Positions 25,811 through 50,151 of a stretch of DNA of 64,000 bases are shown piece by piece. The position numbers and the translations under genes were made by a program. The stretch's first letter is position 1, and each line of letters opens with the position of its first letter. Where the stretch lies: positions 888,826 through 952,825 of the forward strand of contig NZ_JBPOFW010000001.1 in assembly GCF_051252435.1 (NCBI RefSeq), in the 5' to 3' direction. Source of the stretch: Patiriisocius sp. Its GTDB lineage: Bacteria; Bacteroidota; Bacteroidia; Flavobacteriales; Flavobacteriaceae. Below the pieces are notes generated by a model. That model saw only the letters and a list, made by a program, of their open reading frames with translations. It did not search any database and was not told the origin of the DNA.

Positions 25811-27934
25811 TTATTTGTTCAAATACACCCATCCTGTGATAGATTCTTCTGCTTGTAATTCTATTACGTAAAAGTAGTTTCCTACTGGAAGTATATTTTC
25901 ATCATCACTTTGACCTCTCCATTCGTTAGTATATTGAGGTTTTTGGTATACTAATCGTCCTAGACGGTTAAAGACTGAAAAATTTGTAATTGTACTTTTA
26001 TCATTTAAAAACTCAAGGTCAAGGTTGTCATTCATTCCGTCACCGTTAGGGGAAATTCCTTGACTGATTATACAATTTTGATTTTCGTAAAATGTAACCG
26101 AAACGCTGCTCGAAGAAATACAGCCATTATCATTAAGTTCTACAGCATAAATTCCTTCTTCAATAACCTCTATAGTACTGTTATTTTCTCCTGCTAAAAG
26201 CCCTCCATCTTTAAACCATTGATATTCATAAACCGTTGAGTCACCATCTGGAACATTTGCAGTTAAGATTGAAATTTCAGAAGCACATTTACTTACGGTA
26301 GGCCCTAAATCAACTTGAGCAAAGCTTCTAAAGATAATCTCTACAGAGTCACTAATTGTACAATTGTCAATAGTAACATCAAGTGTATAAATTCCATCTT
26401 GGGTAACGGTAATAGTCGGTGTAGTTTCTCCAGTACTCCATAAATATGTAGCAGAAGGAATATTTGCTGACCCAGTGATTTCCGGTACTATTGTAAAAGA
26501 TTCTTCACCACACAATGCAATGACATCTCCTATATTGACATTAAAGACAACAATTTCTATAGAAATTTCATCAGTCGTAACACAGTTATTACCTGTTACT
26601 TCTGCGGTGTAAACCCCGTTTTCACTCACAGTGAGTGTTGCATTTGTTTCACCAACAAGTTCTACCGAATCTTTAAACCATTTGTATGAAACATTGTCAA
26701 GTTCACTAGGATTTGTTACGGTTGCATCAAGAACTAAAAAATTATTTTCGCAAACTAGTTGGTCCGGACCTAGTTCAAATTCTGGATTAGAAAAGAATTC
26801 AACTAGTTTTTCATCAGAAATTAGACAATCTGGTGACTGTGGAAATGTTAAATCAACTCTATACAATCCAGTTTCTGAAACATCTAATGTTGAATTTGTC
26901 TCTCCGGGAATTAATACATTGTCTTTAAACCATTGGTAATCACCGTTTGGATTGTTTCCAGCATCAAGTGTTATAACATCTCCTTCACAAACTGCTTCTG
27001 GATCCCCAAGTGTTATGTCATCTCCCAAATCTACATTTCCAATATTAAAACTCCCTGCATTCAAAAATACAGCAGAATCAAAACCACCGTCTCCTCTGTC
27101 TGCAATGACCATTTTTATGGTATAAATTTCATTAGGAACAATAGAAACCGTAGCTGTCGTTAATGTTGAGGTAAGGCCGTCAAATTGAATTTCATTAGTA
27201 TTGTTTGCATCTTCATTGCTTACATAAAATTCAGGAAAGAAGTTGACTCCTGGGTTTTCAAAACCACACGTAAAATAGTCTGCATGAATAGATGCTGTTG
27301 TTACAGGCACATTGTTTGAACCCGTAACAGAAGCAATATTGGTGCCTCCAAATGGAGCACCCGAATCATTTGGTATACCTGGGCCGCTAACTAAAAAAGC
27401 GAATCCGTCTCTAAAGTCTTGAGTACATTCCCATTGGTCTTCATACTCTTCAGATGCAAAAATAAATTCAAATTCTACTTCAGAAAGGCTTGATGAGAAT
27501 GTAAATTCAAAAACAGTTGCATTGAAAGTATCCTCGTTGTCACCATACTCATTATTCAAAATAGTGGTTAGATCAGAGTCTCCTAACCAACTAAATTGAT
27601 CTCCATCTGAGGTTCCACCATTATCATTTGGGCCTTGTGCGCTTGTAGCGAATCCAGTAGACAATATGATACCTTCTTGAAAAGGAAATGAAGTATTGTT
27701 GTTCTTAAAATAACCCCAGCTTTTCTCCGCATTATTTGTCGCCCCGTTTGGATTGTCAAACAAATCTGTTAGTGTAATATCCACACAAGAGTTTCCGCTT
27801 ACAAGAACCTCTGAAATAAGTTCCTCCGCAGTAAAAGCTGATTGAGGGTCTGCTGGGTCATTGACAATAATTGTTTGTGACCACATAACAGATGTACTCA
27901 AAAGCAACAGTATAAATGTTGAAAAAGATTTCAT
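25811..27934 (-). CDS. T9SS type-B sorting-domain cell-surface protein with an N-terminal choice-of-anchor-L domain and Ig-like repeats
   Basis: 707 aa. FEFIFASEEYEDQWECTQDFRDGFAFLVSGPG and VIADRGDGGFDSAVFLNAGSF are choice-of-anchor-L-like. There are five Y-WFKD/W-type Ig-like repeats. The C-terminal GISPNGDGMNDNLDLEFL...WVYLNK is a gliding-motility type-B CTD. Confidence 0.85.
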   Translation of the reverse strand: MKSFSTFILLLLSTSVMWSQTIIVNDPADPQSAFTAEELISEVLVSGNSCVDITLTDLFDNPNGATNNAEKSWGYFKNNNTSFPFQEGIILSTGFATSAQGPNDNGGTSDGDQFSWLGDSDLTTILNNEYGDNEDTFNATVFEFTFSSSLSEVEFEFIFASEEYEDQWECTQDFRDGFAFLVSGPGIPNDSGAPFGGTNIASVTGSNNVPVTTASIHADYFTCGFENPGVNFFPEFYVSNEDANNTNEIQFDGLTSTLTTATVSIVPNEIYTIKMVIADRGDGGFDSAVFLNAGSFNIGNVDLGDDITLGDPEAVCEGDVITLDAGNNPNGDYQWFKDNVLIPGETNSTLDVSETGLYRVDLTFPQSPDCLISDEKLVEFFSNPEFELGPDQLVCENNFLVLDATVTNPSELDNVSYKWFKDSVELVGETNATLTVSENGVYTAEVTGNNCVTTDEISIEIVVFNVNIGDVIALCGEESFTIVPEITGSANIPSATYLWSTGETTPTITVTQDGIYTLDVTIDNCTISDSVEIIFRSFAQVDLGPTVSKCASEISILTANVPDGDSTVYEYQWFKDGGLLAGENNSTIEVIEEGIYAVELNDNGCISSSSVSVTFYENQNCIISQGISPNGDGMNDNLDLEFLNDKSTITNFSVFNRLGRLVYQKPQYTNEWRGQSDDENILPVGNYFYVIELQAEESITGWVYLNK

Positions 27935-27952
27935 TTTACTTGAGTTATATTT

Positions 27953-30900
27953 TTAGTTTGCTTCTCTATTTATATAAATCCAATGAGAATACGTTTGCTC
28001 AAATACTGGGTCTGGTTGGCTCATTTTAAGAACCATGAAGTAAGTTCCAGTTGGAAGTTCTTCACCATCTGTAGTTTGTCCCTCCCATTGGTTTGTGTAT
28101 CCTTGTCCAAACACATAAACTTCACGTCCAAGTCTGTTGAATATTTGAAGACTTTCAATTCCTGTTCTAGCATTTAAGAACGAAAGGTCAAGAGTATCAT
28201 TGATACCATCACCGTTTGCTGAAATACCTTGCGAAATAACACAATTGGCGTTGTCTGAATATAAGTTTACATCTACTGATGTCATTCCCATACATCCATT
28301 ATTGTCGACAACAACAGAATAGGTTTGTGTTCCCATAGTGTTTGCTGGCAAGCTTACTTCAATGGTGTTTGATGTTTCACCGTCAAGTAATACATCGTTT
28401 AAAAACCATTGGTATGTAACACCATCCACACTTGCAGTTGCTACTAATGTATTTACAAATTCTGGACAAGTTTCAAAATTATCTGTGTCTGAAACGAGCT
28501 CTCCATTAATTTCTATGAAAGCAGTAACTGGGTCTGAAATTACAACAACTACCTCATCTGTAACTGTACATCCATCATCAGTAGTTAGGGTTAAAGAATA
28601 AGTACCCGATGCATTAACGGTTAACATGTCTGATGTTTCACCAGGCAATATATTACCATTTAAAAACCATTGATAAGAAGCTCCTGCTGTATCTCCTATT
28701 ATGTCAGGTATTATAGTATAGTCTTCTCCATCGCATACTGTAGTGTCTGGGCCTAAATCAACGTCTGGGGTAGGATTTACGATTACATTTACAGCTAGCA
28801 TCAAAGTACTACAAGGAGGAACCGTAATTGTTACCGTATACGTTCCAGACATGGTTGGTGTAAATAATGCATCAGTCGAAACTATATTCCCAGCAGCGTC
28901 CATCCAAGAGTATGTTACTGTAGTAAGATCAATACCTGGATTAGTAGGTGTAGCATCAAGCGGTGTAAATGCATCCCCATCACAAAATTCTACTTGTGCT
29001 GGTAAACCAGTTGTGATTACAATGGCATCTGTTATATTCAACATAAAACTAACGGTACTGTAACAATTAGGTTGATTGATTTTCTCAACTCTAACAAAAA
29101 TTGTTTCAGGATTTGTTGTGTTTACATAAGCAGCTGGCGTTGCAATGTCATTGTCTCCACTATCAGCATCTACTTGATTGTTATGGAATGTAATAACATG
29201 TAAAGCTGGATCTAAACCATCTAGTAATTCAGTAATTGTAGATGTTAAATCAAATGTTGCTTCTTCATTTCCTGTTTCATCGCATGCTTCAAGATCTGTT
29301 GGAGCTATAATTGCTGGTGGAGTACCATCGGTAAAAACAACAATATCGTCAACTGCAAGGTCATTTCCGCAGCCACCTGTAATATCATTTGTTATTACAA
29401 TTTGTACTTGTGTATTTGTACCACTATCAAAAACTACCGAGAAATTTATCCATTCAGGGTCTGATTGATTAGGAACCTCTCCTGTATTTGCAGTAGCAAT
29501 TACATTTCCTGCGGAATCTTCAACTTGATAAACTAATCTAGTTGGATCCCCACCAGCTGGACAAATGTTTGTATCGATGTCATAAACTGTTGACATCCAA
29601 AAAGCAAAAGCGTATTGAGTATTTGCAGCTACGGTAACATCACGACGATAAAGTTCAAACTCGCTAGGATCCTGAGAGGGGTTAAAGAAAATCATTTGAC
29701 CATTTGTATCTCCAGGGGTGTGGTCTTCCATACCTACATGCCATCCAGTATTTAGGTTGTCAGAAATACTTGTTACGGTGTATTCATTTCCTTCAATTTG
29801 AACAGTACCATCATTAAAATCTAATTGGGTAAATGGATGCGTTTCAAATCCAGTTCCAGTACCAAAGTCTTCATACAATACATTTTCAGCACAATCAAAA
29901 ATGCCACATCCTGCTTCTTTAGTTATTGTAACATCATCAGTAATTTCGTCAAAACCTCCGCCTGGCAACTCGACAACTAAGGCTGCTGTGTATGTAGTTG
30001 TTTCAGTAGGGCATACTTCAAAAATAGGATCATTACTTAATACAGTACCAGCAGCGTCTCTCCACTCAAATGTACTTGCGTTTGTAGGAGCACCACTAGG
30101 TACAAATCTCCAACTTTCATTTTGTGCTGACCATGGACCAACATTTCTGTCTTCCGGTACAGCAAATTGAGTAACATTGTTACCTTGAAGTCCAACCACA
30201 GCAAGACCATCATTCCATGCAGTACAGGTAGGTTTGTCTATTAGGTTAACATCAATAACATTAAGAGATTCATACAACAATATTTGTTGTGATGTGAAGA
30301 AAGTATCTTGGCAAGCAGTCCCAAAATGAGGTACTTCGTTGAAATTCAAAACAAAGATTCGATATGGAGCTGTTCCTGTGACAAAATAATTTATTCTATC
30401 AGGATCTGGATTAACTCCTGGATTTAAATCGTGAAATGCTCCAAAAATTGTGTTTAAAGGAAATTCATTATCGTTCATTGGAATCATGTCTGTTGGATCC
30501 ATGTTCCATCCATTATTTTGACCTGCAAGAGCTGTGTTAAATGATATTTGTCCATTGGCTCCCACTACGATATCTGTATATGCATTTCCGTAGTAATTGA
30601 ATTCAAAATCAATAGCTATTACGTTAGACCATCTATCGTCAATTGTAATATTTGTAGGTGCTCCACCATCAATAGGCGGTAAATCACAAATAGGACCTTG
30701 AATAGCATAACTTGTAGTATCTAAGAAAGGAGTTGTTAAGAAAGTTCCGTTTAAATCTATACAGGTTGTATCACAATCAAGAAAGGCATCATCACCTGCG
30801 CTCAAAATATCACAACTTCCACTAGAAACGCAATTAATAATTCCACTATCAATAACACAGTCAGTTGCACCACCATCTATCGTAATAATTGGAGTTACTC

Positions 30901-32314
30901 CTGGAGCATAGGTTCCAAAAGTAAACATACCTGGTGCAGTTGCCGTTTGTGCTGGGCTTCCTTGGTCATCGGTAATTGTTAATGTTGACGCACCTCCTAA
31001 ATCTGTAATATCAACTAAGACTGAAAATTCTTCACCAACTTCACACATTCCATCTTGAGTAAAGGTTGCAGTTGGAGGAACACATTCGCAATCAATAGGT
31101 CCACTTGGAACAATACAGTCTGGTACACCACCATCAACAATAATATTTACAATAGTATTAGGGTCATAGGGGCCAAATGTAAAAGTTCCAGGTGCCGTTG
31201 CTGTTTGATTTGGACTTCCTGCGGTATCAAAAATAGTTAAACTAGCTGCTCCACCTAAATCTGTTATAACAACGTCAATATTCCATATTTGTCCTGGGAA
31301 ACACATATCGTTAGACACAAAATCTACGGTTGGGGGAACACAGTCACATGCAATAGGTCCACTTGGAACGATACAATCGGTCACTCCACCATCTACAATA
31401 ATATTTACAACAGTTCCTGGTGCATAAGGTCCAAAAGTGAATGTTCCAGGTGCCATCGCCGTTTGGTTAGGGCTTCCGTTTGTGTCAAAAATAGTTAAAC
31501 TCGACGCACCACCTAAGTCGGTAATTACTACATCAATATTCCACATTTGCCCTGGGAAACACATATCGTTAGACACAAAATCCACGGTTGGCGGTACACA
31601 TTCACATGCGATTGGGTCACTTATTATCAAACAATTTGCATCACCATTGTCAACTGTAAAGATTACATCCATATTAGGGTCGTAAGGGCCAAAAGTTGTC
31701 GTGCCTATAGCAGTAACGACAACAGGAGCAGAACCTTGGTTGTCTGTAATGGTCATCGTGCCTGTACTTCCTAGGTCAGTTACATTTACGTCAATTTCAA
31801 AATCTTGACCTGTAAAACACATGTTGTTACTTACAAAATCAATTGTAGGAGGATTACATGTTTGACAAAATACATCCCAATCCCATTCAGTCTGTGATCC
31901 ACTTTGACAGCTCACTGATACATCAGAATCAATCATTAAGGTAATTGTATCACCTGAAGATTGAAAGGTAAGTCCTGCAAGTTGTCCTCCAGCACCATAA
32001 GGTGCGCCTGCATTTAAATTTGTTACGCCATCGCTATCAAGAACAATGACTTCATCAAAACTGACCTCAGTTGTACCTGCATTAAAGGTTAAAACTAGAG
32101 GAAATCCAGTGTCACTAGAATATTCGAATGCTGTTGTGTCAAAATTGCCATAACAATACGTGTCATTTATAGGGCCATCTGCACAGACTACAGTCGTTTG
32201 TGCATAACTAAAACCAACAAAGAAAAAAGCTAAAACAAAAAGCAATTGAGAACGCTTTATTTTAGCAAGAGAATTTATATTGTTAGAATTTTCGGAAGGT
32301 AATTGTAGCTTCAT
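27953..32314 (-). CDS. Large T9SS type-B sorting-domain surface protein (adhesin-like) with four ~86-aa tandem repeats
   Basis: 1453 aa from the ATG at 32314 (the track start at 32317 is TTG). Signal peptide, then four Cys-bounded repeats (aa ~151-496) and a segment resembling a NIDO-like fold (FEFNYYGNAYTDIVVGANGQISFN). Next come a jelly-roll/CBM-like domain ending GGCGNDLAVDDIVVF, Ig-like repeats, and a C-terminal GISANGDGINDTLDLSFL...WIYINRE type-B CTD. Confidence 0.85.
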   Translation of the reverse strand: MKLQLPSENSNNINSLAKIKRSQLLFVLAFFFVGFSYAQTTVVCADGPINDTYCYGNFDTTAFEYSSDTGFPLVLTFNAGTTEVSFDEVIVLDSDGVTNLNAGAPYGAGGQLAGLTFQSSGDTITLMIDSDVSVSCQSGSQTEWDWDVFCQTCNPPTIDFVSNNMCFTGQDFEIDVNVTDLGSTGTMTITDNQGSAPVVVTAIGTTTFGPYDPNMDVIFTVDNGDANCLIISDPIACECVPPTVDFVSNDMCFPGQMWNIDVVITDLGGASSLTIFDTNGSPNQTAMAPGTFTFGPYAPGTVVNIIVDGGVTDCIVPSGPIACDCVPPTVDFVSNDMCFPGQIWNIDVVITDLGGAASLTIFDTAGSPNQTATAPGTFTFGPYDPNTIVNIIVDGGVPDCIVPSGPIDCECVPPTATFTQDGMCEVGEEFSVLVDITDLGGASTLTITDDQGSPAQTATAPGMFTFGTYAPGVTPIITIDGGATDCVIDSGIINCVSSGSCDILSAGDDAFLDCDTTCIDLNGTFLTTPFLDTTSYAIQGPICDLPPIDGGAPTNITIDDRWSNVIAIDFEFNYYGNAYTDIVVGANGQISFNTALAGQNNGWNMDPTDMIPMNDNEFPLNTIFGAFHDLNPGVNPDPDRINYFVTGTAPYRIFVLNFNEVPHFGTACQDTFFTSQQILLYESLNVIDVNLIDKPTCTAWNDGLAVVGLQGNNVTQFAVPEDRNVGPWSAQNESWRFVPSGAPTNASTFEWRDAAGTVLSNDPIFEVCPTETTTYTAALVVELPGGGFDEITDDVTITKEAGCGIFDCAENVLYEDFGTGTGFETHPFTQLDFNDGTVQIEGNEYTVTSISDNLNTGWHVGMEDHTPGDTNGQMIFFNPSQDPSEFELYRRDVTVAANTQYAFAFWMSTVYDIDTNICPAGGDPTRLVYQVEDSAGNVIATANTGEVPNQSDPEWINFSVVFDSGTNTQVQIVITNDITGGCGNDLAVDDIVVFTDGTPPAIIAPTDLEACDETGNEEATFDLTSTITELLDGLDPALHVITFHNNQVDADSGDNDIATPAAYVNTTNPETIFVRVEKINQPNCYSTVSFMLNITDAIVITTGLPAQVEFCDGDAFTPLDATPTNPGIDLTTVTYSWMDAAGNIVSTDALFTPTMSGTYTVTITVPPCSTLMLAVNVIVNPTPDVDLGPDTTVCDGEDYTIIPDIIGDTAGASYQWFLNGNILPGETSDMLTVNASGTYSLTLTTDDGCTVTDEVVVVISDPVTAFIEINGELVSDTDNFETCPEFVNTLVATASVDGVTYQWFLNDVLLDGETSNTIEVSLPANTMGTQTYSVVVDNNGCMGMTSVDVNLYSDNANCVISQGISANGDGINDTLDLSFLNARTGIESLQIFNRLGREVYVFGQGYTNQWEGQTTDGEELPTGTYFMVLKMSQPDPVFEQTYSHWIYINREAN
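30830..31867 (-). repeat. Four in-frame tandem repeats of ~258 bp inside the 1453-aa gene; the two central copies (31088..31603) are near-identical
   Basis: The protein repeat CxCVPPTVDFVSNDMCFPGQxWNIDVVITDLGGAxSLTIFDTxGSPNQTAxAPGTFTFGPYxPxTxVNIIVDGGVxDCIVPSGPIxC occurs twice almost verbatim, flanked by two diverged copies. By eye the central copies are about 90% identical at the DNA level. Confidence 0.9.
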
Positions 32315-32433
32315 CAAGAATCTTTTTGGAGTTATTTTTCGGCTAAATTTAGTTAAAATATGTTAATGAAAATTGGATCCTTTGACTTTTAGATGAAGTG
32401 CATAAATTTACGACGAAACGCATATCTACCATA

Positions 32434-41779: not shown

Positions 41780-42193
41780 TTATTTTGTCTGCTTTGCTTT
41801 CGCTTTTTTGTCTTCTATTTTTACATCTGCCTTCGCTGGGGTTTTACTCACTTGTACGATATCTATAATCGTTAAAATTTCATCCCAACCTTCTGTTCCT
41901 TCTGGTTTGTTTGCCAGTGTTCCAGTAACTACAACTGGTACCATATCATAATCATCTTTTTTTACGGGAGCGACTTTATCTGCTAACTCGTGCATTTTTT
42001 CATCGATTGCCACGCCATAAATAAAATCTTTACCTTTTAAAACCGCTGCATCTGCAGTATAAATAAACTCTCCTTTATAAACAGCAAGGTTTGAATTTGC
42101 AGTTGTTACTAGGTCTTCATTAACTTTGGTTTCGTTGTTTTTACATGATGCAATCGTTAATACAGCAATTGCAATGAATACTAACTTTTTCAT
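41780..42193 (-). CDS. Small lipoprotein of unknown function inserted between sufB and sufC
   Basis: 137 aa. Lipobox IASC, with a Lys/Ala-rich C-terminal tail. Its stop is 1 nt from the sufC start. Confidence 0.5.
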   Translation of the reverse strand: MKKLVFIAIAVLTIASCKNNETKVNEDLVTTANSNLAVYKGEFIYTADAAVLKGKDFIYGVAIDEKMHELADKVAPVKKDDYDMVPVVVTGTLANKPEGTEGWDEILTIIDIVQVSKTPAKADVKIEDKKAKAKQTK

Positions 42194-42228: not shown

Positions 42229-43677
42229 TTATCCAACGGAGCCTTCTAGGCTTATTTCTAACAATTTTTGAGCCTCTACAGCAAATTCCATCGGGAGTTT
42301 ATTTAAAACCTCTTTGCTGAAACCATTTACAATTAACGCAATTGCTTTTTCGGTGTCAATTCCTCTTTGGTTACAGTAGAAAATTTGGTCTTCACCAATT
42401 TTACTTGTAGTTGCTTCATGCTCAACTTGAGCAGTTTTGTTTTTTGCTTCTATGTACGGAAATGTGTGCGCACCACAAGCATTGCCCATTAGTAGAGAAT
42501 CACATTGTGAAAAATTACGCGCATTATCTGCAGTTGAATTAATTTTCACCAAACCACGATAACTGTTTTGAGATTGTCCTGCTGAAATTCCCTTTGAAAT
42601 AATAGTGCTCTTGGTGTTTTTCCCAATATGAACCATTTTTGTCCCTGTATCTGCTTGCTGAAAGTTATTCGTTACAGCGATAGAATAAAATTCGCCTACA
42701 CTGTTGTCTCCTTTCAAAATACAGCTTGGATATTTCCATGTAACGGCGCTTCCAGTTTCAACTTGCGTCCAAGAAATTTTTGCGTTTTTCTCGCAAATTC
42801 CTCTTTTGGTCACAAAATTATAAACGCCACCTTTACCTTCTTTGTTTCCTGGATACCAGTTTTGAACTGTAGAGTATTTTATTTCGGCATCGTCTAAGGC
42901 AATTAATTCAACCACAGCTGCGTGTAATTGGTTTTCATCGCGGCTTGGTGCCGTACATCCTTCAAGATAACTTACATAACTTCCTTCATCTGCAATGACG
43001 AGTGTTCTTTCAAACTGTCCCGTTCCCGCTTGATTGATTCTAAAATACGTTGAAAGTTCCATTGGGCAACGAACGCCTTTAGGAATATAACAAAAAGACC
43101 CATCACTAAAAACCGCACTGTTTAATGCCGCGTAAAAATTATCTCTTTGTGGAACAACGGTACCTAAATATTTTTTAACAAGTTCAGGATGCTCTTTTAT
43201 GGCTTCAGAAATACTCATAAAAATAATCCCTTTTTCGGCCAAAGTCTTTTTAAATGTAGTTGCAACCGAAACAGAATCAACAACAATATCCATTGCTACG
43301 TTGTTCATTTTTTTCTGTTCATCTACTGAAATTCCTAGCTTTTTATACATCGCTAGCAATTCAGGATCTACATCGTCCAAAGTTTTGTTGGGATCCATTT
43401 TTGTTGGGGCAGAATAATATGCAATTGCTTGAAAATCTGGTTTTGCATAATTTACATTTGCCCAATCTGGTTCTTCCATTGATTGCCAATGACGAAAGGC
43501 TTCCAATCTCCAATCTGTCATCCATTGTGGCTCTTCTTTTTTTGCTGAGATAGCGCGCACAATATCCTCATTCAATCCAATAGGGAATGTTTCAGATTTA
43601 ATATCTGTATAAAATCCGTACTCGTATTCTTTCGTTTCGAGCTCTTTCTTTAAATCATCTTCAGTATACTTACTCAT
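42229..43677 (-). CDS. sufB: Fe-S cluster assembly scaffold SufB
   Basis: 482 aa. Highly conserved C-terminal half ([18 protein letters not shown]...[16 protein letters not shown]). Confidence 0.95.
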
Positions 43678-43696
43678 AGCTTTTTTTCAGGCATTA

Positions 43697-44026
43697 TTAA
43701 AGTGAAAAACTTTCACCGCAACCGCATGTGCGATTTGCATTTGGATTATTAAAAACAAATCCTTTTCCGTTAAGACCACCACTAAATTCTAGTGTTGTTC
43801 CTACGAGATATAAAAAACTCTTTTTGTCAACGGCAATTTTCACTTCGTTTTCTTCAAAAATTTTATCGTTTTCTCCCACAGTTCCATCAAAATTTAGCTC
43901 GTAAGATAATCCAGAACACCCTCCGCTTTTTACGCCTACGCGTACGTAGTCTTTGGCAATGCTGAAACCATCTTCGGCCATCAGTTGCGCAATCTTTGTT
44001 TTTGCAGTATCGCTTACTTTAATCAT
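43697..44026 (-). CDS. sufA: HesB/IscA-family Fe-S carrier (A-type carrier)
   Basis: 109 aa. GGCSG and C-terminal CGCGESF motifs. It is the first gene of the suf cluster. Confidence 0.85.
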   Translation of the reverse strand: MIKVSDTAKTKIAQLMAEDGFSIAKDYVRVGVKSGGCSGLSYELNFDGTVGENDKIFEENEVKIAVDKKSFLYLVGTTLEFSGGLNGKGFVFNNPNANRTCGCGESFSL

Positions 44027-44141
44027 ATATTTAGATTTATTCTAAATTAGATGGCAAAGATACGTTAAAAACGGCATTTTTTCAATAAGATGGGATAATT
44101 TAAAAAGATAGGTTAATAGGCTTTAATTATAGACATTATAG

Positions 44142-44154
44142 CACATTTCCGAAG
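44142..44154 (+). repeat. Intergenic copy of the iterated word CACATTTCCGAAG
   Basis: Read directly. Lies between the peroxidase stop (44192) and the sufA start (44026). Confidence 0.9.
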
Positions 44155-44191
44155 TAAAAAATGAAAAAAAAAATTGAATCAACGACGTTGG

Positions 44192-45262
44192 TTAATTTGG
44201 TCTTTGATAGTCGGGATTGTTTGCCAAAGACGGATCGGATAAGCTCAATAGAAAGGCTTTCAAATCTGCTTTATCCTCCTCGGTCAATTGAACACCACCT
44301 TGTGCCACTGTTTTCATAAGTGGGTCAATGGTTTCAGAAAAAACTAGTCCTTCACTGTAGTGGTTGATAACTTCATCTAAAGTTTCAAAACGCCCGTCGT
44401 GCATGTAAGGGGCGGTATAAGCAAGATTGCGTAAAGACGGTGATTTGAACCATCCAAATTGCGCGGGATCTCCTGTGACTAAGCCAAGACCTCGATCATT
44501 AAATACTTCGTCAAGACCGTTGTTATGAAAATCGTTGTCTGTCCACGTAGGGTTACTATCACTACCGTGGCAATGAAAGCAGTCTCCTCTGTTCTCATCT
44601 AAAAAAACTGCAAGTCCATTTGCTTCGGCTTCTGTTAATGTAGCTTCGCCTCTTAAATGTTTATCAAATTTTGAATTACCGGAAACAATGGTTCTTAAAA
44701 ACTGTGCAATTGCTTTGGTTACAAGCTCTTTTGAAATGTTAGATGTCCCAAATGCTTGCTCAAAAAGCAAAGGATAATCAGATTGAGCTTGTAATGTAGC
44801 TACAGCATTAGGCCACGTATTATGCATTTCAATCTCGTTGATGACAGGTTCGAGTATTTGTTCTTCTAATGAAGAAGCACTTCCATCCCAATTAAATTTT
44901 TTGTTTGTATTGTAAGCAAGATTAACAAGCGGCATTGAATTTCTAAATCCTGCAATACCATCAATCCCTACGCTAAATTGTCTCTGGTCTGAAAATCCTT
45001 GATTTGGCGCGTGACAACCTGCACATGCTAGCGTATTGTCTGCTGAGAGTTTTCTGTCGTAAAATAGTTTGCGCCCTAAAGAAACTCCTTCTACAGTTTG
45101 CGGATTATCCGCAGGAAAAATGGGGCTTGTTAAAAGCTGTTCAAAAATTGCTGGACCTTGAAAAGCAAGTGGGGTAGGGATGTATCCTTCTTGTTCGTCA
45201 TCTTCATTGCAGGATACAAACGTGATTGTAATTAAAACAAGAAGAATTCCCTTTTTAAACAT
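44192..45262 (-). CDS. Di-heme cytochrome c peroxidase family protein (MauG/MbnH-like)
   Basis: 356 aa with a lipoprotein-like signal (FVSC). Two CxxCH haem motifs (CAGCH, CFHCH) and PSLRNLAYTAPYMHDGRF. Confidence 0.85.
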   Translation of the reverse strand: MFKKGILLVLITITFVSCNEDDEQEGYIPTPLAFQGPAIFEQLLTSPIFPADNPQTVEGVSLGRKLFYDRKLSADNTLACAGCHAPNQGFSDQRQFSVGIDGIAGFRNSMPLVNLAYNTNKKFNWDGSASSLEEQILEPVINEIEMHNTWPNAVATLQAQSDYPLLFEQAFGTSNISKELVTKAIAQFLRTIVSGNSKFDKHLRGEATLTEAEANGLAVFLDENRGDCFHCHGSDSNPTWTDNDFHNNGLDEVFNDRGLGLVTGDPAQFGWFKSPSLRNLAYTAPYMHDGRFETLDEVINHYSEGLVFSETIDPLMKTVAQGGVQLTEEDKADLKAFLLSLSDPSLANNPDYQRPN

Positions 45263-45264
45263 AG

Positions 45265-46017
45265 TTATTCTATTGTAAAAACAGTTTGACCATTTGTTTC
45301 CATATCCAGTTGTGCTTGATAATTACCCATTAACATGCCATCGCGCTCATTCAAGTTCCATGGTTTGAACCATTCGGCGATATTCATTTTGATATCGACT
45401 GTGTCATTATCATTCGATATCACAATATTATTTGCAGAAAAAGGAATAGAAGTATCTTCTCTTGTTACATTTGGTGTCATAGCATCTTGTGCCGCACTAA
45501 TTGTATGATACGCATATCCAGTAGTGACTCCTATGTCATTGATGTATTGTCCTTCCAGCTGCATGTAGTGATATCCTCCACCCATTGGCTCAGGAACATT
45601 CCAAGACGCGGCATTCAAATCATTATAAGCATTTGTAGTGTTTTTTTCCTCAGTAAAACCAAATCTTGCAGATACTGTATAAGTTCCAGCAGGTAAAGAT
45701 ATGTTCTCAATACTAGCTCCCATTCCTGCACCGACATCCACAAAATTATATTCATCTACGATTGTCGAAACTCCATCTGCATTCGTAAACGTAATATCAG
45801 TAATTAAATAGCGCATCCTTGAAAAACTAATCATTTCGCCATGCTCAACAGTATAGTCTAGAGAATTAAAGTCAGCACTTGTAACTTCTGTACCGTCAAA
45901 GTTTTGACTAAAGTTAATGTCAATTGCTACGTTTGGTGTCACTGTTTCGTTATCATCGTCCTTATCACACGCCATCAGAGCAACGGCTGCGAATAGCGTT
46001 ATTGCAATTTTTTTCAT
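45265..46017 (-). CDS. MbnP-like lipoprotein (putative partner of the di-heme peroxidase)
   Basis: 250 aa with lipobox LMAC. FSRMRYLITDITF and WNVPEPMGGGYHYMQLEG resemble MbnP-family motifs as I recall them. A 2-nt gap to the peroxidase gene suggests translational coupling. Confidence 0.5.
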   Translation of the reverse strand: MKKIAITLFAAVALMACDKDDDNETVTPNVAIDINFSQNFDGTEVTSADFNSLDYTVEHGEMISFSRMRYLITDITFTNADGVSTIVDEYNFVDVGAGMGASIENISLPAGTYTVSARFGFTEEKNTTNAYNDLNAASWNVPEPMGGGYHYMQLEGQYINDIGVTTGYAYHTISAAQDAMTPNVTREDTSIPFSANNIVISNDNDTVDIKMNIAEWFKPWNLNERDGMLMGNYQAQLDMETNGQTVFTIE

Positions 46018-46042
46018 AATATTTTTTAAATTTAAGTGGGGA

Positions 46043-47410
46043 TTATTTAATCTTAATGATTAACGCATCTTTTATTCCTTTATTTTCTGAAATATCAGCG
46101 TCATTACTTTCTGTGTTTCCAACGAAAATAATTTCGTTGTTTTGGGTTTGAATAGCACCTTCTGCAAAATCTAGACTTGTGCCACCTATTGTTTTCTGAA
46201 ATTGAATAGCTCCACTTTCATCGATAACAAAAACCCAAGCATCATTTTGACCCGCTCCACCCGTAACATCACCGCTAGAACTTCTTGTATTGCCAGAAAT
46301 AATATAAGTACCATTCTGTCCTTTGGTAACTGATCTAGCAGAATCAAACTCAGGTCCTCCGTAGGTTTTTTGCCAAATAATATTTCCGTTATCATCAAAT
46401 TTGATAACCCAAGCATCTGCATTACCTTTAGGATTTGTAACATCAAAATCAGAACTTCTAGTGTCTCCAACCATCATATAATTTCCATCGGTGGTCATAG
46501 TCAAGGCATATCCATTATCTATTTCACTTCCGCCAAATGATTTCGCCCATACGATATCACCTGTTGGTGTTAAGCGTACTGCCCAAAAATCGTAAGAACC
46601 TTTTCCGTCAGTAATGTCAAAATCATTACTTTCTGATGAGCCTACCATTAAAATCCCGCCATCGGCAGTTTCTAATGCATCATAGCTACGGTCATTGTTT
46701 GATCCTCCAAAATATCTTCTCCACAAAGTGGTGCCAGTATTATCTAACAAAATACCCCAAAACTCACCAACTCCGTGCAAGGCTCCTCTATTGCTGCCAT
46801 TTCCGTCATTACCTTGTTGATTGCTCGCTGTTACGTCTAGAAAGCCCGTTACAAAATAGTTTCCAGTTGAGGTCTCTATAATTTTAAAAGCTTGATCACT
46901 CCCTGGAAATCCAAAACTTTTTTGCCATTGCAAATCGCCTAAACTGTTTAATTTGACTATCCAATAGTCATGAAACCCTTGATTTTGAGTTACATCGCCA
47001 TCATTGCTACGCGTGTAACCACTAACGATATATCCTCCGTCGCTAGTTTTGGATATTGCCGTCGCTGTATCATCTGCGGATCCACCATAGATTTTTGTAT
47101 AGTCTATGGTTCCATCTGCGTTTAATTTCAGCAGCCAATAATCTCTATCGGTTGTTGTTTTTCCAGTAACATCTCCATCGTTGCTTTCTGTATTCCCTAT
47201 TATCATATAGCCTCCGTCAGAGGTTGAAAGTAAATCAACTGCGGTGTCAATGCCAGACCCACCATAGGTTTTAATGTATTCTACCTCACCTAAAAAAGAA
47301 CTTGGTTCGGGTTCAGGATTCATAGGTTCACTCTCATCATTTTTTTCACAGCTTATAAAAACTGTTAAGCCGATGAGTGCAAGAATTCTTAAGTATGTGG
47401 GGATGTTCAA
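46043..47410 (-). CDS. Lipoprotein built from ~7-8 tandem ~55-aa repeats (probable beta-propeller)
   Basis: 455 aa with lipobox FISC. The repeating unit is YGGSxxDxAxxxxxTSDGGYxxxGxTxSNDGDVTxxxGxxDxWxxKLxxxGxxxWxK. TTG start at 47410, with no ATG available. Confidence 0.6.
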   Translation of the reverse strand: MNIPTYLRILALIGLTVFISCEKNDESEPMNPEPEPSSFLGEVEYIKTYGGSGIDTAVDLLSTSDGGYMIIGNTESNDGDVTGKTTTDRDYWLLKLNADGTIDYTKIYGGSADDTATAISKTSDGGYIVSGYTRSNDGDVTQNQGFHDYWIVKLNSLGDLQWQKSFGFPGSDQAFKIIETSTGNYFVTGFLDVTASNQQGNDGNGSNRGALHGVGEFWGILLDNTGTTLWRRYFGGSNNDRSYDALETADGGILMVGSSESNDFDITDGKGSYDFWAVRLTPTGDIVWAKSFGGSEIDNGYALTMTTDGNYMMVGDTRSSDFDVTNPKGNADAWVIKFDDNGNIIWQKTYGGPEFDSARSVTKGQNGTYIISGNTRSSSGDVTGGAGQNDAWVFVIDESGAIQFQKTIGGTSLDFAEGAIQTQNNEIIFVGNTESNDADISENKGIKDALIIKIK

Positions 47411-47422
47411 AATATTTAATTT

Positions 47423-48835
47423 TTATTTTACGATAAGTCGTTTTGTAGTGTTACCGTTGATTTTTACAAGATACATTCCTGCATTTAATGAAGTAACATC
47501 AATTGATTTGTTACTAGTTTCAGTAAAAGATTCCATAACTACTTGTTGACCAAGAATGTTAAAAATCTCAATTGATGTAATTGGATTTGCAGAAGATTTA
47601 ATGGAGAAAGTACCTGTCGCAGGATTGGGAGATAATGTAAAATCATTAGTAGTTACCTCATTAGTTCCTAGAAGCGGGTCTTTTACGATAAGAAGACCTC
47701 TATTGATGTCGCTAATTACAATATTGCCGCTAGCAAAATAAGGATATACGCTCCAAGCTCCTTCAAATTCGGCGCTATTAGATTCTGGATAAGAATCGAA
47801 AGATGCAATTTCTTCGATATTACCATTAGCAATATCAGAAATATCTATTACTCTTAAACCTGCAGTGTAATTGGCCATGTAATATTTATCACCTAAAACA
47901 TAACCGTTATGGTCGATTGCATTGGTTGGTCCTTCATACTCAAAATCTAATTGAGGATTGTCTAAATCTTCAAAATCAAAAATAATTGTTCTTGTAGGGA
48001 AGCCATTAAATTGTTCATCCAACTCATCTCCTAAAATAAAATAACGCTGGTCTTCAGTAAACCAACCTTGGTGTGTGTAACCTAAGTTTGGATAATCTAT
48101 CGTTTCAATCTGAACAGGGGTATTTTTATTTGTTACGTCTAGTATTACAATTTCATCTGCATTGCTACTTATTAAAATTTCTCTTCCTGTATAATCTGTG
48201 TCAGGACCATTATATGTAACTACTTGTGCATCGTGGCTATAACCATCACCTGCGTATCCTCCTGCAGCAACCGGATTTTGTGGGTCTTGGATGTTGATAA
48301 AATGAGGTCCACCATTATTAAAAGTACTTGTGCCTACTGCGTAAGCAAAACCAGTGTCTTCATTGATAATAATATTGTGACAGTTACCAAATCCACCATA
48401 AAATGCATCAGTATCAAAAGATTCTGGCGGATTAGATACATTTCTTAGTCTTCTTAAATCAAATACTTGCATTCCATGACCGCTTGCTTCACTTACAATG
48501 AATGCGTGATCTTGATAAACTTTAATGTCTCTCCATGAACTAGAGTCTGTTTCAGTATCAAGTTTTCCTAGATAAATAGGGTTGATTGGGTCTGAAATAT
48601 CTACAAATGCTGTACCATTGTTCAATCCCATTAAAGCGTATTCTTTTCCTGTAGTCGGGTCTGTCCATCCCCAAGAGTCATTTCCACTACCAGCGTTCAT
48701 GTCTGCCAGTGAGATTCTAGATTGCAAATCATATCCGTCACAATCGAAAGGCCCTGCTGAGCCTCCTGAGCAGGGAGTTTGTGCCGTCAATGAAAATGAT
48801 GCAATTGCTAATACTAAAGGGAATAGTTTTTTCAT
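47423..48835 (-). CDS. Choice-of-anchor-B / LVIVD-repeat beta-propeller protein with a T9SS type-A C-terminal sorting domain
   Basis: 470 aa with a signal peptide. CSGGSAGPFDCDGYDL...NDSWGWTDPTTGKEYALMG is the choice-of-anchor-B start. C-terminal LSPNPATGTFSIK...LNAGMYLVKINGNTTKRLIVK is a Por secretion tail. Confidence 0.75.
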   Translation of the reverse strand: MKKLFPLVLAIASFSLTAQTPCSGGSAGPFDCDGYDLQSRISLADMNAGSGNDSWGWTDPTTGKEYALMGLNNGTAFVDISDPINPIYLGKLDTETDSSSWRDIKVYQDHAFIVSEASGHGMQVFDLRRLRNVSNPPESFDTDAFYGGFGNCHNIIINEDTGFAYAVGTSTFNNGGPHFINIQDPQNPVAAGGYAGDGYSHDAQVVTYNGPDTDYTGREILISSNADEIVILDVTNKNTPVQIETIDYPNLGYTHQGWFTEDQRYFILGDELDEQFNGFPTRTIIFDFEDLDNPQLDFEYEGPTNAIDHNGYVLGDKYYMANYTAGLRVIDISDIANGNIEEIASFDSYPESNSAEFEGAWSVYPYFASGNIVISDINRGLLIVKDPLLGTNEVTTNDFTLSPNPATGTFSIKSSANPITSIEIFNILGQQVVMESFTETSNKSIDVTSLNAGMYLVKINGNTTKRLIVK

Positions 48836-49101
48836 ATTTAATTTTTTTTTGAAATTTTATTTTATGTAAACCTATTGTTAATAAGGTGAAGCTACGAATC
48901 TAATGAGTTTAATGTGAGACGCAAATTTCACTAATTAATTACACAATGACTGTTAAAGTTTTCTATTTAATTAGCCTTAGCACACAATAATTCTATAAAT
49001 TACTTTTTTCAAAATGTGCTAATTAATTGGCAGGTGTTGATTTAATTACTACATCGTTTTATTCTTAAGATGTACCTTTGCATTCCTTAATTGAATTCAT
49101 A

Positions 49102-50151
49102 ATGCTAGAAAATAAAAATACATCAAGAACAGATATAAGCTCAATGGGAGAATTTGGTCTTATTGACCACTTGACAAAAGTATTCACTATTGAACATTCG
49201 TCAACCATAAGAGGTATTGGTGACGACGCAGCTGTTCTCGAATTAAAAAACCAACAAGTGGTAACCACCGATTTGCTTGTTGAAGGAGTTCATTTTGATA
49301 TGAGCTATATGCCCTTAAAACATCTAGGGTACAAAGCCGTGGTTGTGAATGTAAGCGATGTATATGCCATGAATGCTATTCCATCGCAAATTACCGTTTC
49401 AATTGCGGTTTCCAATAGATTCCCCGTAGAAGCGCTCGAGGAATTATATGAAGGTATTAATGCGGCTGTAAAACAATACAATGTTGATGTTGTGGGTGGA
49501 GACACTACATCCTCCACGAGTGGTTTGATAATTAGTATTACTGCAATAGGTTCAGCAAAAAAAGAAGAAATTGTATATCGAAGTAACGCAAAAGAAAATG
49601 ACTTACTCGTTGTGAGCGGTGATTTGGGCGCGGCTTATTTAGGACTGCAAATTTTAGAAAGAGAACGCCAGGTTTTTCAGGTGAACCCTAATGCACAACC
49701 AGATTTAGAACCTTATTCTTACCTTATTGAGCGACAATTGAAGCCTGAAGCACGGAAAGACATCCCAAAATTATTAAAAGATCTCGGCGTTTTGCCAACA
49801 TCAATGATTGATATAAGTGACGGATTATCGAGCGAGGTAATTCATTTGTGCAAACAATCCAAAGTGGGTTGTACGGTTTATGAAGATAAAATTCCTTTGG
49901 ATCCACAAGTGATTACAACTTGTGAAGAATTTAATATGGAAAGTACCACCATCGCAATGAATGGCGGAGAAGATTACGAATTATTGTTTACAATATCCAT
50001 GGAGGATTTTCCTAAGATTAAAGGAAATCCTAACTTTTCGGTCATAGGTCATATGAACAAAGAAAATGAGGGAGCACATCTAGTCACTCGTGCCAATACT
50101 AAAATTCCCATTGTGGCGAGAGGCTGGAATTCATTAAAAGAAAACGATTAA
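49102..50151 (+). CDS. thiL: Thiamine-monophosphate kinase
   Basis: ATG at 49102 (MLENKNTSRTDISSMGEFGLIDHL...). GDDAAVL, DLLVEGVHF, GGDTTSS. The track start at 49078 is an upstream TTG. Confidence 0.9.
   Translation: MLENKNTSRTDISSMGEFGLIDHLTKVFTIEHSSTIRGIGDDAAVLELKNQQVVTTDLLVEGVHFDMSYMPLKHLGYKAVVVNVSDVYAMNAIPSQITVSIAVSNRFPVEALEELYEGINAAVKQYNVDVVGGDTTSSTSGLIISITAIGSAKKEEIVYRSNAKENDLLVVSGDLGAAYLGLQILERERQVFQVNPNAQPDLEPYSYLIERQLKPEARKDIPKLLKDLGVLPTSMIDISDGLSSEVIHLCKQSKVGCTVYEDKIPLDPQVITTCEEFNMESTTIAMNGGEDYELLFTISMEDFPKIKGNPNFSVIGHMNKENEGAHLVTRANTKIPIVARGWNSLKEND

Follow-up and report, generated by a model that had tools for sequence, protein, structure and literature searches.

A choice-of-anchor-B propeller gene recurs beside MbnP/MbnH-type gene pairs in Flavobacteriaceae and in a proteobacterial-type lineage

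A 64,000-nucleotide stretch of contig NZ_JBPOFW010000001.1 (positions 888,826 to 952,825; hereafter the window), from a metagenome-assembled genome of Patiriisocius sp. (Flavobacteriaceae), carries four co-directional open reading frames (ORFs) on the minus strand at positions 48835-44192 of the window. They encode a choice-of-anchor-B (CoAB) propeller protein, a repeat-propeller lipoprotein, an MbnP-fold lipoprotein and a di-haem lipoprotein, and taken together they suggest a system, not described before, for handling metal or maturing an enzyme at the surface. Coordinates and successive gaps (12, 25 and 2 nt) agree with an earlier note made from the letters of this DNA alone. The four ORFs are genuine genes and not chance ORFs, as the conservation of the cluster across 80 genomes shows; existing NCBI product names are 'choice-of-anchor B family' and 'MbnP family'. 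The genes are as follows.

47423..48835, minus: gene 1, choice-of-anchor-B (CoAB) protein, 470 amino acids (aa)
46043..47410, minus: gene 2, SBBP/delta-60-like repeat-propeller lipoprotein, 455 aa, TTG start
45265..46017, minus: gene 3, MbnP-fold lipoprotein, 250 aa
44192..45262, minus: gene 4, MauG/MbnH-type di-haem lipoprotein, 356 aa

Upstream of gene 1 lies the divergent thiL, and downstream of gene 4 follow sufA, sufB, a gene for a 137-aa lipoprotein, sufC, sufD and sufS. Among the genes of the window no TonB-dependent receptor lies within ~23 kb of the cluster, the nearest being more than 23 kb off, which bears out the observation of the earlier note that no such receptor is adjacent.

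In the CoAB protein a signal peptide is followed by a seven-bladed propeller (residues 21-386) and by a type A C-terminal domain of the type IX secretion system (T9SS; residues 402-470). Both the CoAB domain and the T9SS tail, first proposed from the letters, score far above their cut-offs (TIGR04312, 569.5 bits against 100; TIGR04183, 56.7 bits against 23), and the C-terminal domain also matches the solved T9SS domains 8GLK and 8GLJ. The additional label LVIVD fared less well: Pfam PF08309 stays sub-threshold on gene 1 (17.1 bits against 20.2), and several close homologues have a precomputed match to it. The AlphaFold2 (AF2) model, with a mean predicted local distance difference test score (pLDDT) of 86.7, contains the seven-bladed propeller and the C-terminal domain. 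Its top fold match in the PDB is the phosphotriesterase Sb-PTE of Sphingobium sp. TCM1 (5HRM; E 9e-12, template modelling (TM) score 0.54, identity ~13%), the remainder being generic WD40 propellers, and Sb-PTE is also the sole propeller that the CoAB sequence profile touches, weakly (E 0.27). Conservation singles out one part of the propeller.

47909..48379, minus: four-His stretch of CoAB, putative metal or catalytic centre, on the basis of conservation

The four residues H153, H201, H255 and H309, one each in four consecutive blades, are 100% conserved in 172 sequences, 125 of them flavobacterial copies, counting tandem paralogs, and 47 of them domains of the proteobacterial type. Further invariant residues are Y199, D202, Y253, W258, D270, E271, D273, E274, D308 and N310, as well as D347, W55, W101, W361 and a Cys pair. 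By its conservation, this His/acidic set appears to be the mark of a metal or catalytic centre and not of a passive adhesin. Sb-PTE has a binuclear metal centre in a seven-bladed propeller, and CoAB is likewise seven-bladed with His residues from successive blades; the putative likeness consists of the best PDB fold similarity and the invariance of the four His and acidic residues. The metal ligands of Sb-PTE are, as Mabanglo et al. reportedly found in 2016, four His and two Glu; we know of no surface anchor and no MbnP or MbnH neighbours of that enzyme. Relatives of CoAB are very widespread (at least 8,000 among the matches listed), and a literature search on 'choice-of-anchor B' found no paper. 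Tandem amplification of CoAB to four or five copies, upstream of the SBBP gene, is seen in Ulvibacter/Altibacter-like genomes (loci L017, L039, L040, L045, L069, L072 and L080 of our collection). All amplified copies retain the four invariant His residues, and one copy at L017 is 638 aa long, which implies an extra domain.

The product of gene 3 passes the Pfam MbnP model PF20243 with 84 bits against a cut-off of 27, and its AF2 model (pLDDT 88.7) has MbnP 7L6G as the sole significant Foldseek match in the PDB (E 3e-8, probability 1.0, TM score 0.5-0.58). Sequence and two-profile searches of the PDB with this protein gave no match; the link to 7L6G came from the fold search and from HHalign, in which a 108-member gene 3 profile aligned with canonical MbnPs (M. 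parvus, P. xiamenensis, Trichormus and metagenomic) at 99.4-99.5% probability. The protein has a lipobox (...LMAC, then DKDDDNE), and the lipobox Cys is present in 131 of 131 sampled members of the Bacteroidota MbnP-like family, which comprises 2,363 clusters at 50% identity. Two proteins, P0154 (499 aa) and P0178 (520 aa), contain two tandem MbnP-like domains.

Published MbnP binds copper through His, Met, solvent and a kynurenine, Kyn174, whose precursor Trp lies inside a conserved WxW motif (PMC11951088). M. parvus MbnP has W171 and W173, either of which may correspond to Kyn174 in the offset Methylosinus numbering. Two stretches of gene 3 are of interest here.

45562..45603, minus: remodelled motif W139-N-V141-P-E-P-M-G-G-G-Y-H150-Y-M152, counterpart of the canonical M-x-W-x-W...G-[HY]-K-F
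45328..45507, minus: invariant H171, M211, W216, W220 and M230, candidate metal ligands, with W216 as an alternative oxidation target

The earlier note had put forward the Trp in SWNVPEPMGGGY (W139) as the residue of the expected site. Alignment with HHalign and MAFFT places W139 opposite the canonical Met and not opposite a Trp, V141 opposite the first canonical Trp and E143 opposite the second. Across 78 flavobacterial loci the motif reads WxV in 73 and FxV in five, and four of these five keep the complete cluster, di-haem gene included. Since W139 sits at the canonical Met position and is replaced by Phe in some loci with a complete cluster, it is dispensable, and its candidacy as sole kynurenine precursor was rejected. 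Distant Bacteroidota relatives have M-x-W-P, intermediates W-x-W-P and the clade of the window W-x-V-P or F-x-V-P; the series from M-x-W through W-x-W to W/F-x-V amounts to a natural experiment on the need for kynurenine in the MbnP family. The His side of the predicted Trp/His site is retained, and its Trp side is lost to V141: H171 aligns with the His of the canonical 'HLGS' and M230 with the Met of the canonical 'C-M', both candidate copper ligands. Seven residues (H150, M152, H171, M211, W216, W220 and M230) are invariant across the 78 loci, and W216 is kept in 106 of 108 distant representatives. From this pattern the His/Met-rich set would fit a Cu(I)-type site, and W216 would be a better oxidation candidate than W139.

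Gene 4 belongs to the CCP_MauG family (E 5e-55) and, as predicted in the earlier note, encodes two CxxCH motifs, CAGCH at residue 80 and CFHCH at residue 228. Its best NCBIfam match is the MbnH model TIGR04039, at 253.9 bits below the cut-off of 362.85; the MauG model TIGR03791 gives 185 bits against 444, and the best PDB match is MbnH 6E1C (E 2e-52). Both MbnH and cytochrome c peroxidases have a Trp aligned with the inter-haem Trp of gene 4, in the sequence FNWDG, and Tyr302 aligns with the Tyr of 'ILFYN' in MauG and of 'DIYSEG' in MbnH, a position at which 2C1U and 3O5C have Met. The E haem is His-Met ligated in canonical bacterial cytochrome c peroxidases and His-Tyr ligated in MauG, MbnH and BthA, which oxidise proteins via a bis-Fe(IV) state (PMC11892367). 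Because Tyr302 occupies the E-haem ligand position and the inter-haem Trp is present, the enzyme is predicted to belong to the protein-oxidising MauG/MbnH-type class, using H2O2 on residues of a partner, and not to the peroxide-detoxifying class.

The product of gene 2 is a repeat propeller as anticipated, with six full and two half units of ~57 aa that make up seven blades, a match to the CylK propeller 7FH6 (E 6e-29) and a lipobox (...VFISC, then EKNDESE). A Pfam scan of gene 2 found no family, and the protein lies below the SBBP/LipL53/delta-60 cut-offs (NF047494, 41.9 against 400 bits; TIGR02608, 39.3 against 76.5 bits). Only flavobacterial versions of the cluster have the SBBP gene.

All three lipoproteins carry an acidic stretch after the lipobox Cys (C-D-K-D-D-D in the MbnP-like protein, C-E-K-N-D-E in SBBP and C-N-E-D-D-E in the di-haem enzyme), with a consensus C-x-x-D-D-D across loci; the surface lipoprotein export signal (LES) of Bacteroidetes is K-(D/E)2 (PMC5080379). 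By this match the products of genes 2-4 plausibly reach the cell surface, and CoAB is, judging from its sorting domain, exported by T9SS. The proposal in the earlier note that an MbnP/MbnH-like pair is coupled to two propellers, with products that are exported and plausibly surface-located, is upheld in this qualified form. Both T9SS and the type II secretion system (T2SS) export proteins already folded in the periplasm, and substrates of either system could therefore equally be loaded with metal or modified there. A kynurenine-copper protein at the surface with a di-haem partner at the surface has a precedent in MopE/SACCP (PMC3912023).

An MbnP-like profile scan of one genome per GTDB species returned 466 relatives, the best 80 loci of which, all Flavobacteriaceae-type, were examined. 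Tightly spaced clusters are found in ~76 of the 80 genomes, with median internal gaps of 10, 8 and 10 nt across the ~76 loci and many start/stop overlaps, and the four genes occur together in essentially every Flavobacteriaceae locus retrieved, as the earlier note had expected. Wherever the Flavobacteriaceae contig reaches far enough, the order is thiL (divergent), CoAB (one to five tandem copies), SBBP, MbnP-like, MbnH-like, sufA, sufB. It is important to point out that synteny extends equally to the upstream genes thiL, brnQ, pepP and one for an alpha/beta hydrolase, and conservation inside one family alone is therefore no proof of functional coupling.

Evidence of another kind comes from outside the Flavobacteriaceae. 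MbnP-like genes of other Bacteroidota lie behind a TonB-dependent transporter (L082, L083), behind ExbB-ExbD-TonB together with a MauG-like gene (L084) or with a MauG-like gene alone (L085), and no propellers were found beside them at these four loci; the contrast with TonB-associated pairs that the earlier note had drawn thus holds. A search of plasmid records with gene 4 by tblastn led to Pseudoalteromonas xiamenensis, whose chromid (NZ_CP099918 / NZ_CP072135) encodes an 898-aa CoAB (464 bits) divergent from adjacent MbnP and MbnH genes, the products of which pass their models (TIGR04052, 152.6 bits against 140; TIGR04039, 503 against 363). The 72,556 plasmid records hold only two CoAB matches, both from P. 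xiamenensis, and the one detailed adjoins MbnP-MbnH. A metagenome scan with this CoAB as seed gave ~62 loci of the same type, in which CoAB is ~900 aa long and has a GlyGly-CTERM-like anchor at its end, made up of SSGGGS, a hydrophobic helix and basic residues. MbnH-MbnP is divergently adjacent to CoAB in 17 of the 36 metagenomic loci with at least 2.2 kb upstream, and these MbnPs have 'SMFWSW...GHKF' and 'HLGSxGC' motifs and 6-11 Cys residues. Flanking genes vary from locus to locus, and neither suf nor SBBP genes were found in the proteobacterial-type CoAB-MbnP-MbnH loci; the SBBP gene and the position beside suf are flavobacterial specifics. The label 'proteobacterial-type' rests on P. xiamenensis, on a sigma-70 gene of the long proteobacterial type, with a Sigma70_ner region, at L095, on a GC content of ~44% and on the GlyGly-CTERM-like tails. 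Since the adjacency recurs in two distant lineages with another gene order, another anchor and another context, it provides strong evidence, at the level of sequence, that CoAB is tied functionally to MbnP-MbnH.

The same recurrence bears on the notion that the four genes are unrelated neighbours sharing only an inherited order, gene 4 being an ordinary periplasmic cytochrome c peroxidase that detoxifies peroxide and the propellers being adhesins. Propellers are common as adhesin and scaffold folds, the literature on LVIVD proteins offers only generic suggestions of 'surface attachment', and the flavobacterial evidence all comes from one family with syntenic flanks. Yet the E-haem ligand position holds Tyr and not Met, start/stop overlaps and gaps below 15 nt are conserved, an invariant set of four His and acidic residues is not expected of a mere adhesin, and CoAB-MbnP-MbnH recurs in another order, phylum-level lineage and flanking context, all of which leaves such chance neighbourhood very improbable. 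At one further locus, L086, at 97-101 kb on plasmid NZ_CP111054 of Chondrinema litorale, MbnP-family and di-haem genes form two pairs in mirror order (peroxidase-MbnP-hypothetical ... MbnP-peroxidase) next to an ABC/RND-type efflux set; their MbnPs are lipoproteins with WxW and bridge the canonical and the Bacteroidota sequence types.

For the flavobacterial cluster, the favoured reading, on which the scales stand about level, is that of an extracytoplasmic module in which the di-haem enzyme matures an MbnP-fold carrier of a soft metal, probably copper, that serves the metal centre of CoAB, with SBBP as tether or scaffold. The target of the di-haem enzyme would be an aromatic side chain of the MbnP-like lipoprotein, W216 or W220 in preference to W139, and its oxidation would complete a soft-metal site, probably for Cu(I), built from H171 and M230, joined or not by H150, M152 and M211. 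The carrier would then load the metal centre of CoAB or take metal from it, either in the periplasm before T9SS export or at the cell surface. CoAB would fill the place that a TonB-dependent transporter holds in classical MbnP-MbnH loci, the SBBP lipoprotein, an addition in flavobacteria, would probably serve secreted CoAB as tether or scaffold, and the up to five tandem CoAB paralogs may reflect diversified clients or specificities. Broader, and decidedly more doubtful, is the proposal that CoAB-MbnP-MbnH forms an unrecognised three-component system across phylum-level lineages, in which the di-haem enzyme and the MbnP-fold carrier mature or metal-load a secreted four-His metallo-propeller enzyme of the LVIVD type. 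If true, this system would amount to an assembly line devoted to an extracellular metalloenzyme.

Several observations weigh against the carrier reading. The earlier assignment of gene 3 as MbnP-like stands for family and fold (PF20243 and 7L6G) and fails on several sequence hallmarks: the TIGR04052 model ('MbnP_like_WxW', cut-off 140 bits) gave no match to gene 3 at E<=0.01, with M. parvus (290.9 bits), P. xiamenensis (152.6) and Chondrinema (49-52) as controls; the canonical M-x-W-x-W is replaced by W/F-x-V-x-E; and the only Cys of the protein is the lipobox Cys17, against 6-11 Cys in canonical proteins, and the Cys-rich C-terminal half typical of canonical members (6-8 Cys) is missing. Given the replaced motif, the failed model and the lost cysteines, the chemistry of Methylosinus MbnP may not apply here. 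Four His with carboxylates, as in CoAB, are more typical of Mn, Fe and Zn hydrolase centres than of copper, and the reading assumes that a lipidated c-type cytochrome is flipped out to the cell surface. Adjacent MbnP-MbnH genes are absent from about half of the proteobacterial-type CoAB loci, and the flavobacterial-type metagenome locus L159 (contig RCMY010000342.1) has CoAB-SBBP followed by suf, with no MbnP-like or di-haem gene detected, as though the pair had been lost naturally.

On the three-component proposal, loss of the canonical kynurenine-forming Trp by the flavobacterial carrier would mean that another residue (W216/W220) is modified, that another metal is bound, or that the oxidative chemistry has moved to the propeller. 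The last of these would make CoAB itself the client of the di-haem enzyme, with a cofactor or cross-link formed from Trp/Tyr residues near the His cluster, akin to the tryptophan tryptophylquinone (TTQ) that depends on MauG, and with the MbnP-like protein as adaptor or docking factor, for which a Trp of its own would have become unnecessary. The di-haem gene is still retained although the canonical MbnP Trp has given way to V141 and W139 is dispensable, invariant W55, W101, W258, W361, Y199 and Y253 lie next to the invariant His residues of CoAB, and the CoAB-MbnP-MbnH adjacency that spans lineages is as this reading would have it. On the other hand, proteobacterial MbnP keeps the full M-F-W-x-W and passes TIGR04052, which argues that in those loci the substrate is still MbnP, the invariant W216 and W220 could be targets in the flavobacterial protein, and a cross-link is not predictable from sequence; on balance CoAB as the client is unlikely, and maturation of the MbnP-fold carrier is retained as the preferred reading.

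Comparison with known systems places the cluster close to several of them. Proteobacterial CoAB-MbnP-MbnH loci, which are annotated and of which no description was found in the literature, have the same three families side by side, with the CoAB His/acidic residues and a surface sorting signal; they differ from the cluster in the window in a CoAB of ~900 aa with a GlyGly-CTERM-like tail, in divergent transcription, in canonical MbnP and MbnH and in the lack of SBBP and suf. The MbnP/MbnH of methanobactin operons (Methylosinus trichosporium OB3b; 7L6G, 6E1C) are likewise an MbnP-fold protein and, encoded next to it, a Tyr-ligated, MauG-like di-haem enzyme, with the partner gene before the enzyme gene and with the 'HLGS' His and 'C-M' Met corresponding to H171 and M230. 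Unlike these, the pair in the window falls below both NCBIfam cut-offs, has W/F-x-V for WxW and no Cys-rich motif, and consists of lipoproteins with an acidic, export-like signal; the cluster lacks a TonB-dependent transporter and methanobactin genes and has two propeller genes most likely co-transcribed with the pair. MauG, a di-haem enzyme with a His-Tyr haem, carries out long-range oxidation of Trp residues of its partner and builds TTQ, and its substrate complex, methylamine dehydrogenase (MADH), includes a seven-bladed propeller subunit. In contrast to MauG and pre-methylamine dehydrogenase, the cluster has no homologue of the MADH light chain and no mau genes. MopE/SACCP and CorA/CorB of methanotrophs also pair a kynurenine-copper protein of the surface with a MauG-like di-haem peroxidase homologue from the same transcript, both being located on the cell surface in M. 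capsulatus (PMC3912023); the fold of MopE and CorA differs from that of MbnP (PMC11951088), and these methanotroph systems have no propeller partners and show copper-repressed expression.

Outside methanobactin operons, the only partner of MbnP/MbnH pairs recognised so far has been a TonB-dependent transporter. The CoAB propeller would be a second partner that crosses lineages, with an invariant four-His centre and always surface-anchored, and the association gives both families a concrete functional context. It suggests a means by which, outside the cytoplasm, abundant marine heterotrophs (Flavobacteriaceae and Pseudoalteromonas-like bacteria) deal with a trace metal or put a metalloenzyme together.

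The position directly upstream of suf, which the earlier note had pointed out, is correct, and it raises the idea of an iron or Fe-S acquisition or stress system co-expressed with the downstream suf operon. The region between the two contains the following.

44027..44191, minus: mbnH-sufA spacer, 165 nt, with a T-run after a weak hairpin, as read from the sequence
44062-44055, minus: sufA -7 box TATCTTTG, inside the mbnH-sufA spacer

The cluster is followed by sufA, in the same orientation, in nearly every Flavobacteriaceae locus, and no strong terminator was found in the mbnH-sufA spacer. The spacer nevertheless has a median length of 156 nt against ~10 nt within the cluster and carries its own conserved Bacteroidota -7 box, with TATATTTG in 59 of 71 homologous spacers. 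In view of the short inner gaps, the ~156-nt spacer and the conserved -7 box, the four genes most likely form one operon, as far as sequence can tell, and suf is most likely under its own promoter. Moreover, the whole region is simply conserved (thiL, the hydrolase gene, brnQ and pepP being equally syntenic), the proteobacterial CoAB-MbnP-MbnH loci have no suf genes, and at L043, L048 and L057 the cluster is followed by other genes, which lie between it and suf or stand in place of suf. Such an iron- or Fe-S-related role is accordingly improbable, and the adjacency to suf is lineage synteny.

The block at L043, L048 and L057, an insertion of one clade, comprises a pnuC-like nicotinamide mononucleotide (NMN) transporter gene, an AAA_28 kinase-like gene, a TonB-dependent receptor gene and thiC/thiF, and is probably an island for taking up and making a vitamin (thiamine/NMN). 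The receptor gene after gene 4 at these loci was considered as a member of the cluster and rejected, as it belongs to the inserted pnuC-like/AAA_28/thiC block. Just 3' of the sufA -7 box, at 44027-44070 and in the homologous spacers, lies a conserved element, CTAATTTAGAA, with ATTTAGA in 64 of 71; by its position it may serve as the operator site of a regulator of suf.

On the other side of the cluster, the promoter region of the operon was read as follows.

48836..49077: thiL-CoAB divergent intergenic region, with a candidate -7 box for the operon, TAGGTTTA (48874-48867, minus), at consensus level only

A TAnnTTT[GA] box occurs 20-40 nt upstream of the CoAB start in many loci. A scan for sigma-70 promoters and terminators did not rise above shuffled sequence (24 against 21.4), and an Rfam scan of 43600-49400 gave nothing credible. 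In k-mer footprinting of homologous intergenic regions only the Bacteroidota -7 boxes of the thiL and sufA promoters emerged, and a metal-regulator box was not found. The same region of the window contains palindromic CTAATTAATT repeats at 48922-49054, with direct copies at 48922-48940 and 49010-49028 and several inverted pairs; they show no obvious conservation in other genera and could be a regulator site or merely AT-rich sequence.

Two further features of the window lie outside the cluster. Two adjacent large proteins with Ig/PKD repeats (707 and 1454 aa; 25811-32317, minus) end in CHU_C (type B) T9SS sorting domains, and the organism would thus export several surface proteins by T9SS. The gene for the 137-aa lipoprotein between sufB and sufC (41780-42193, minus) matches no Pfam family, has a homologue at the equivalent spot in ~60 of the 80 Flavobacteriaceae loci and seems to belong to the suf operon in this lineage specifically.

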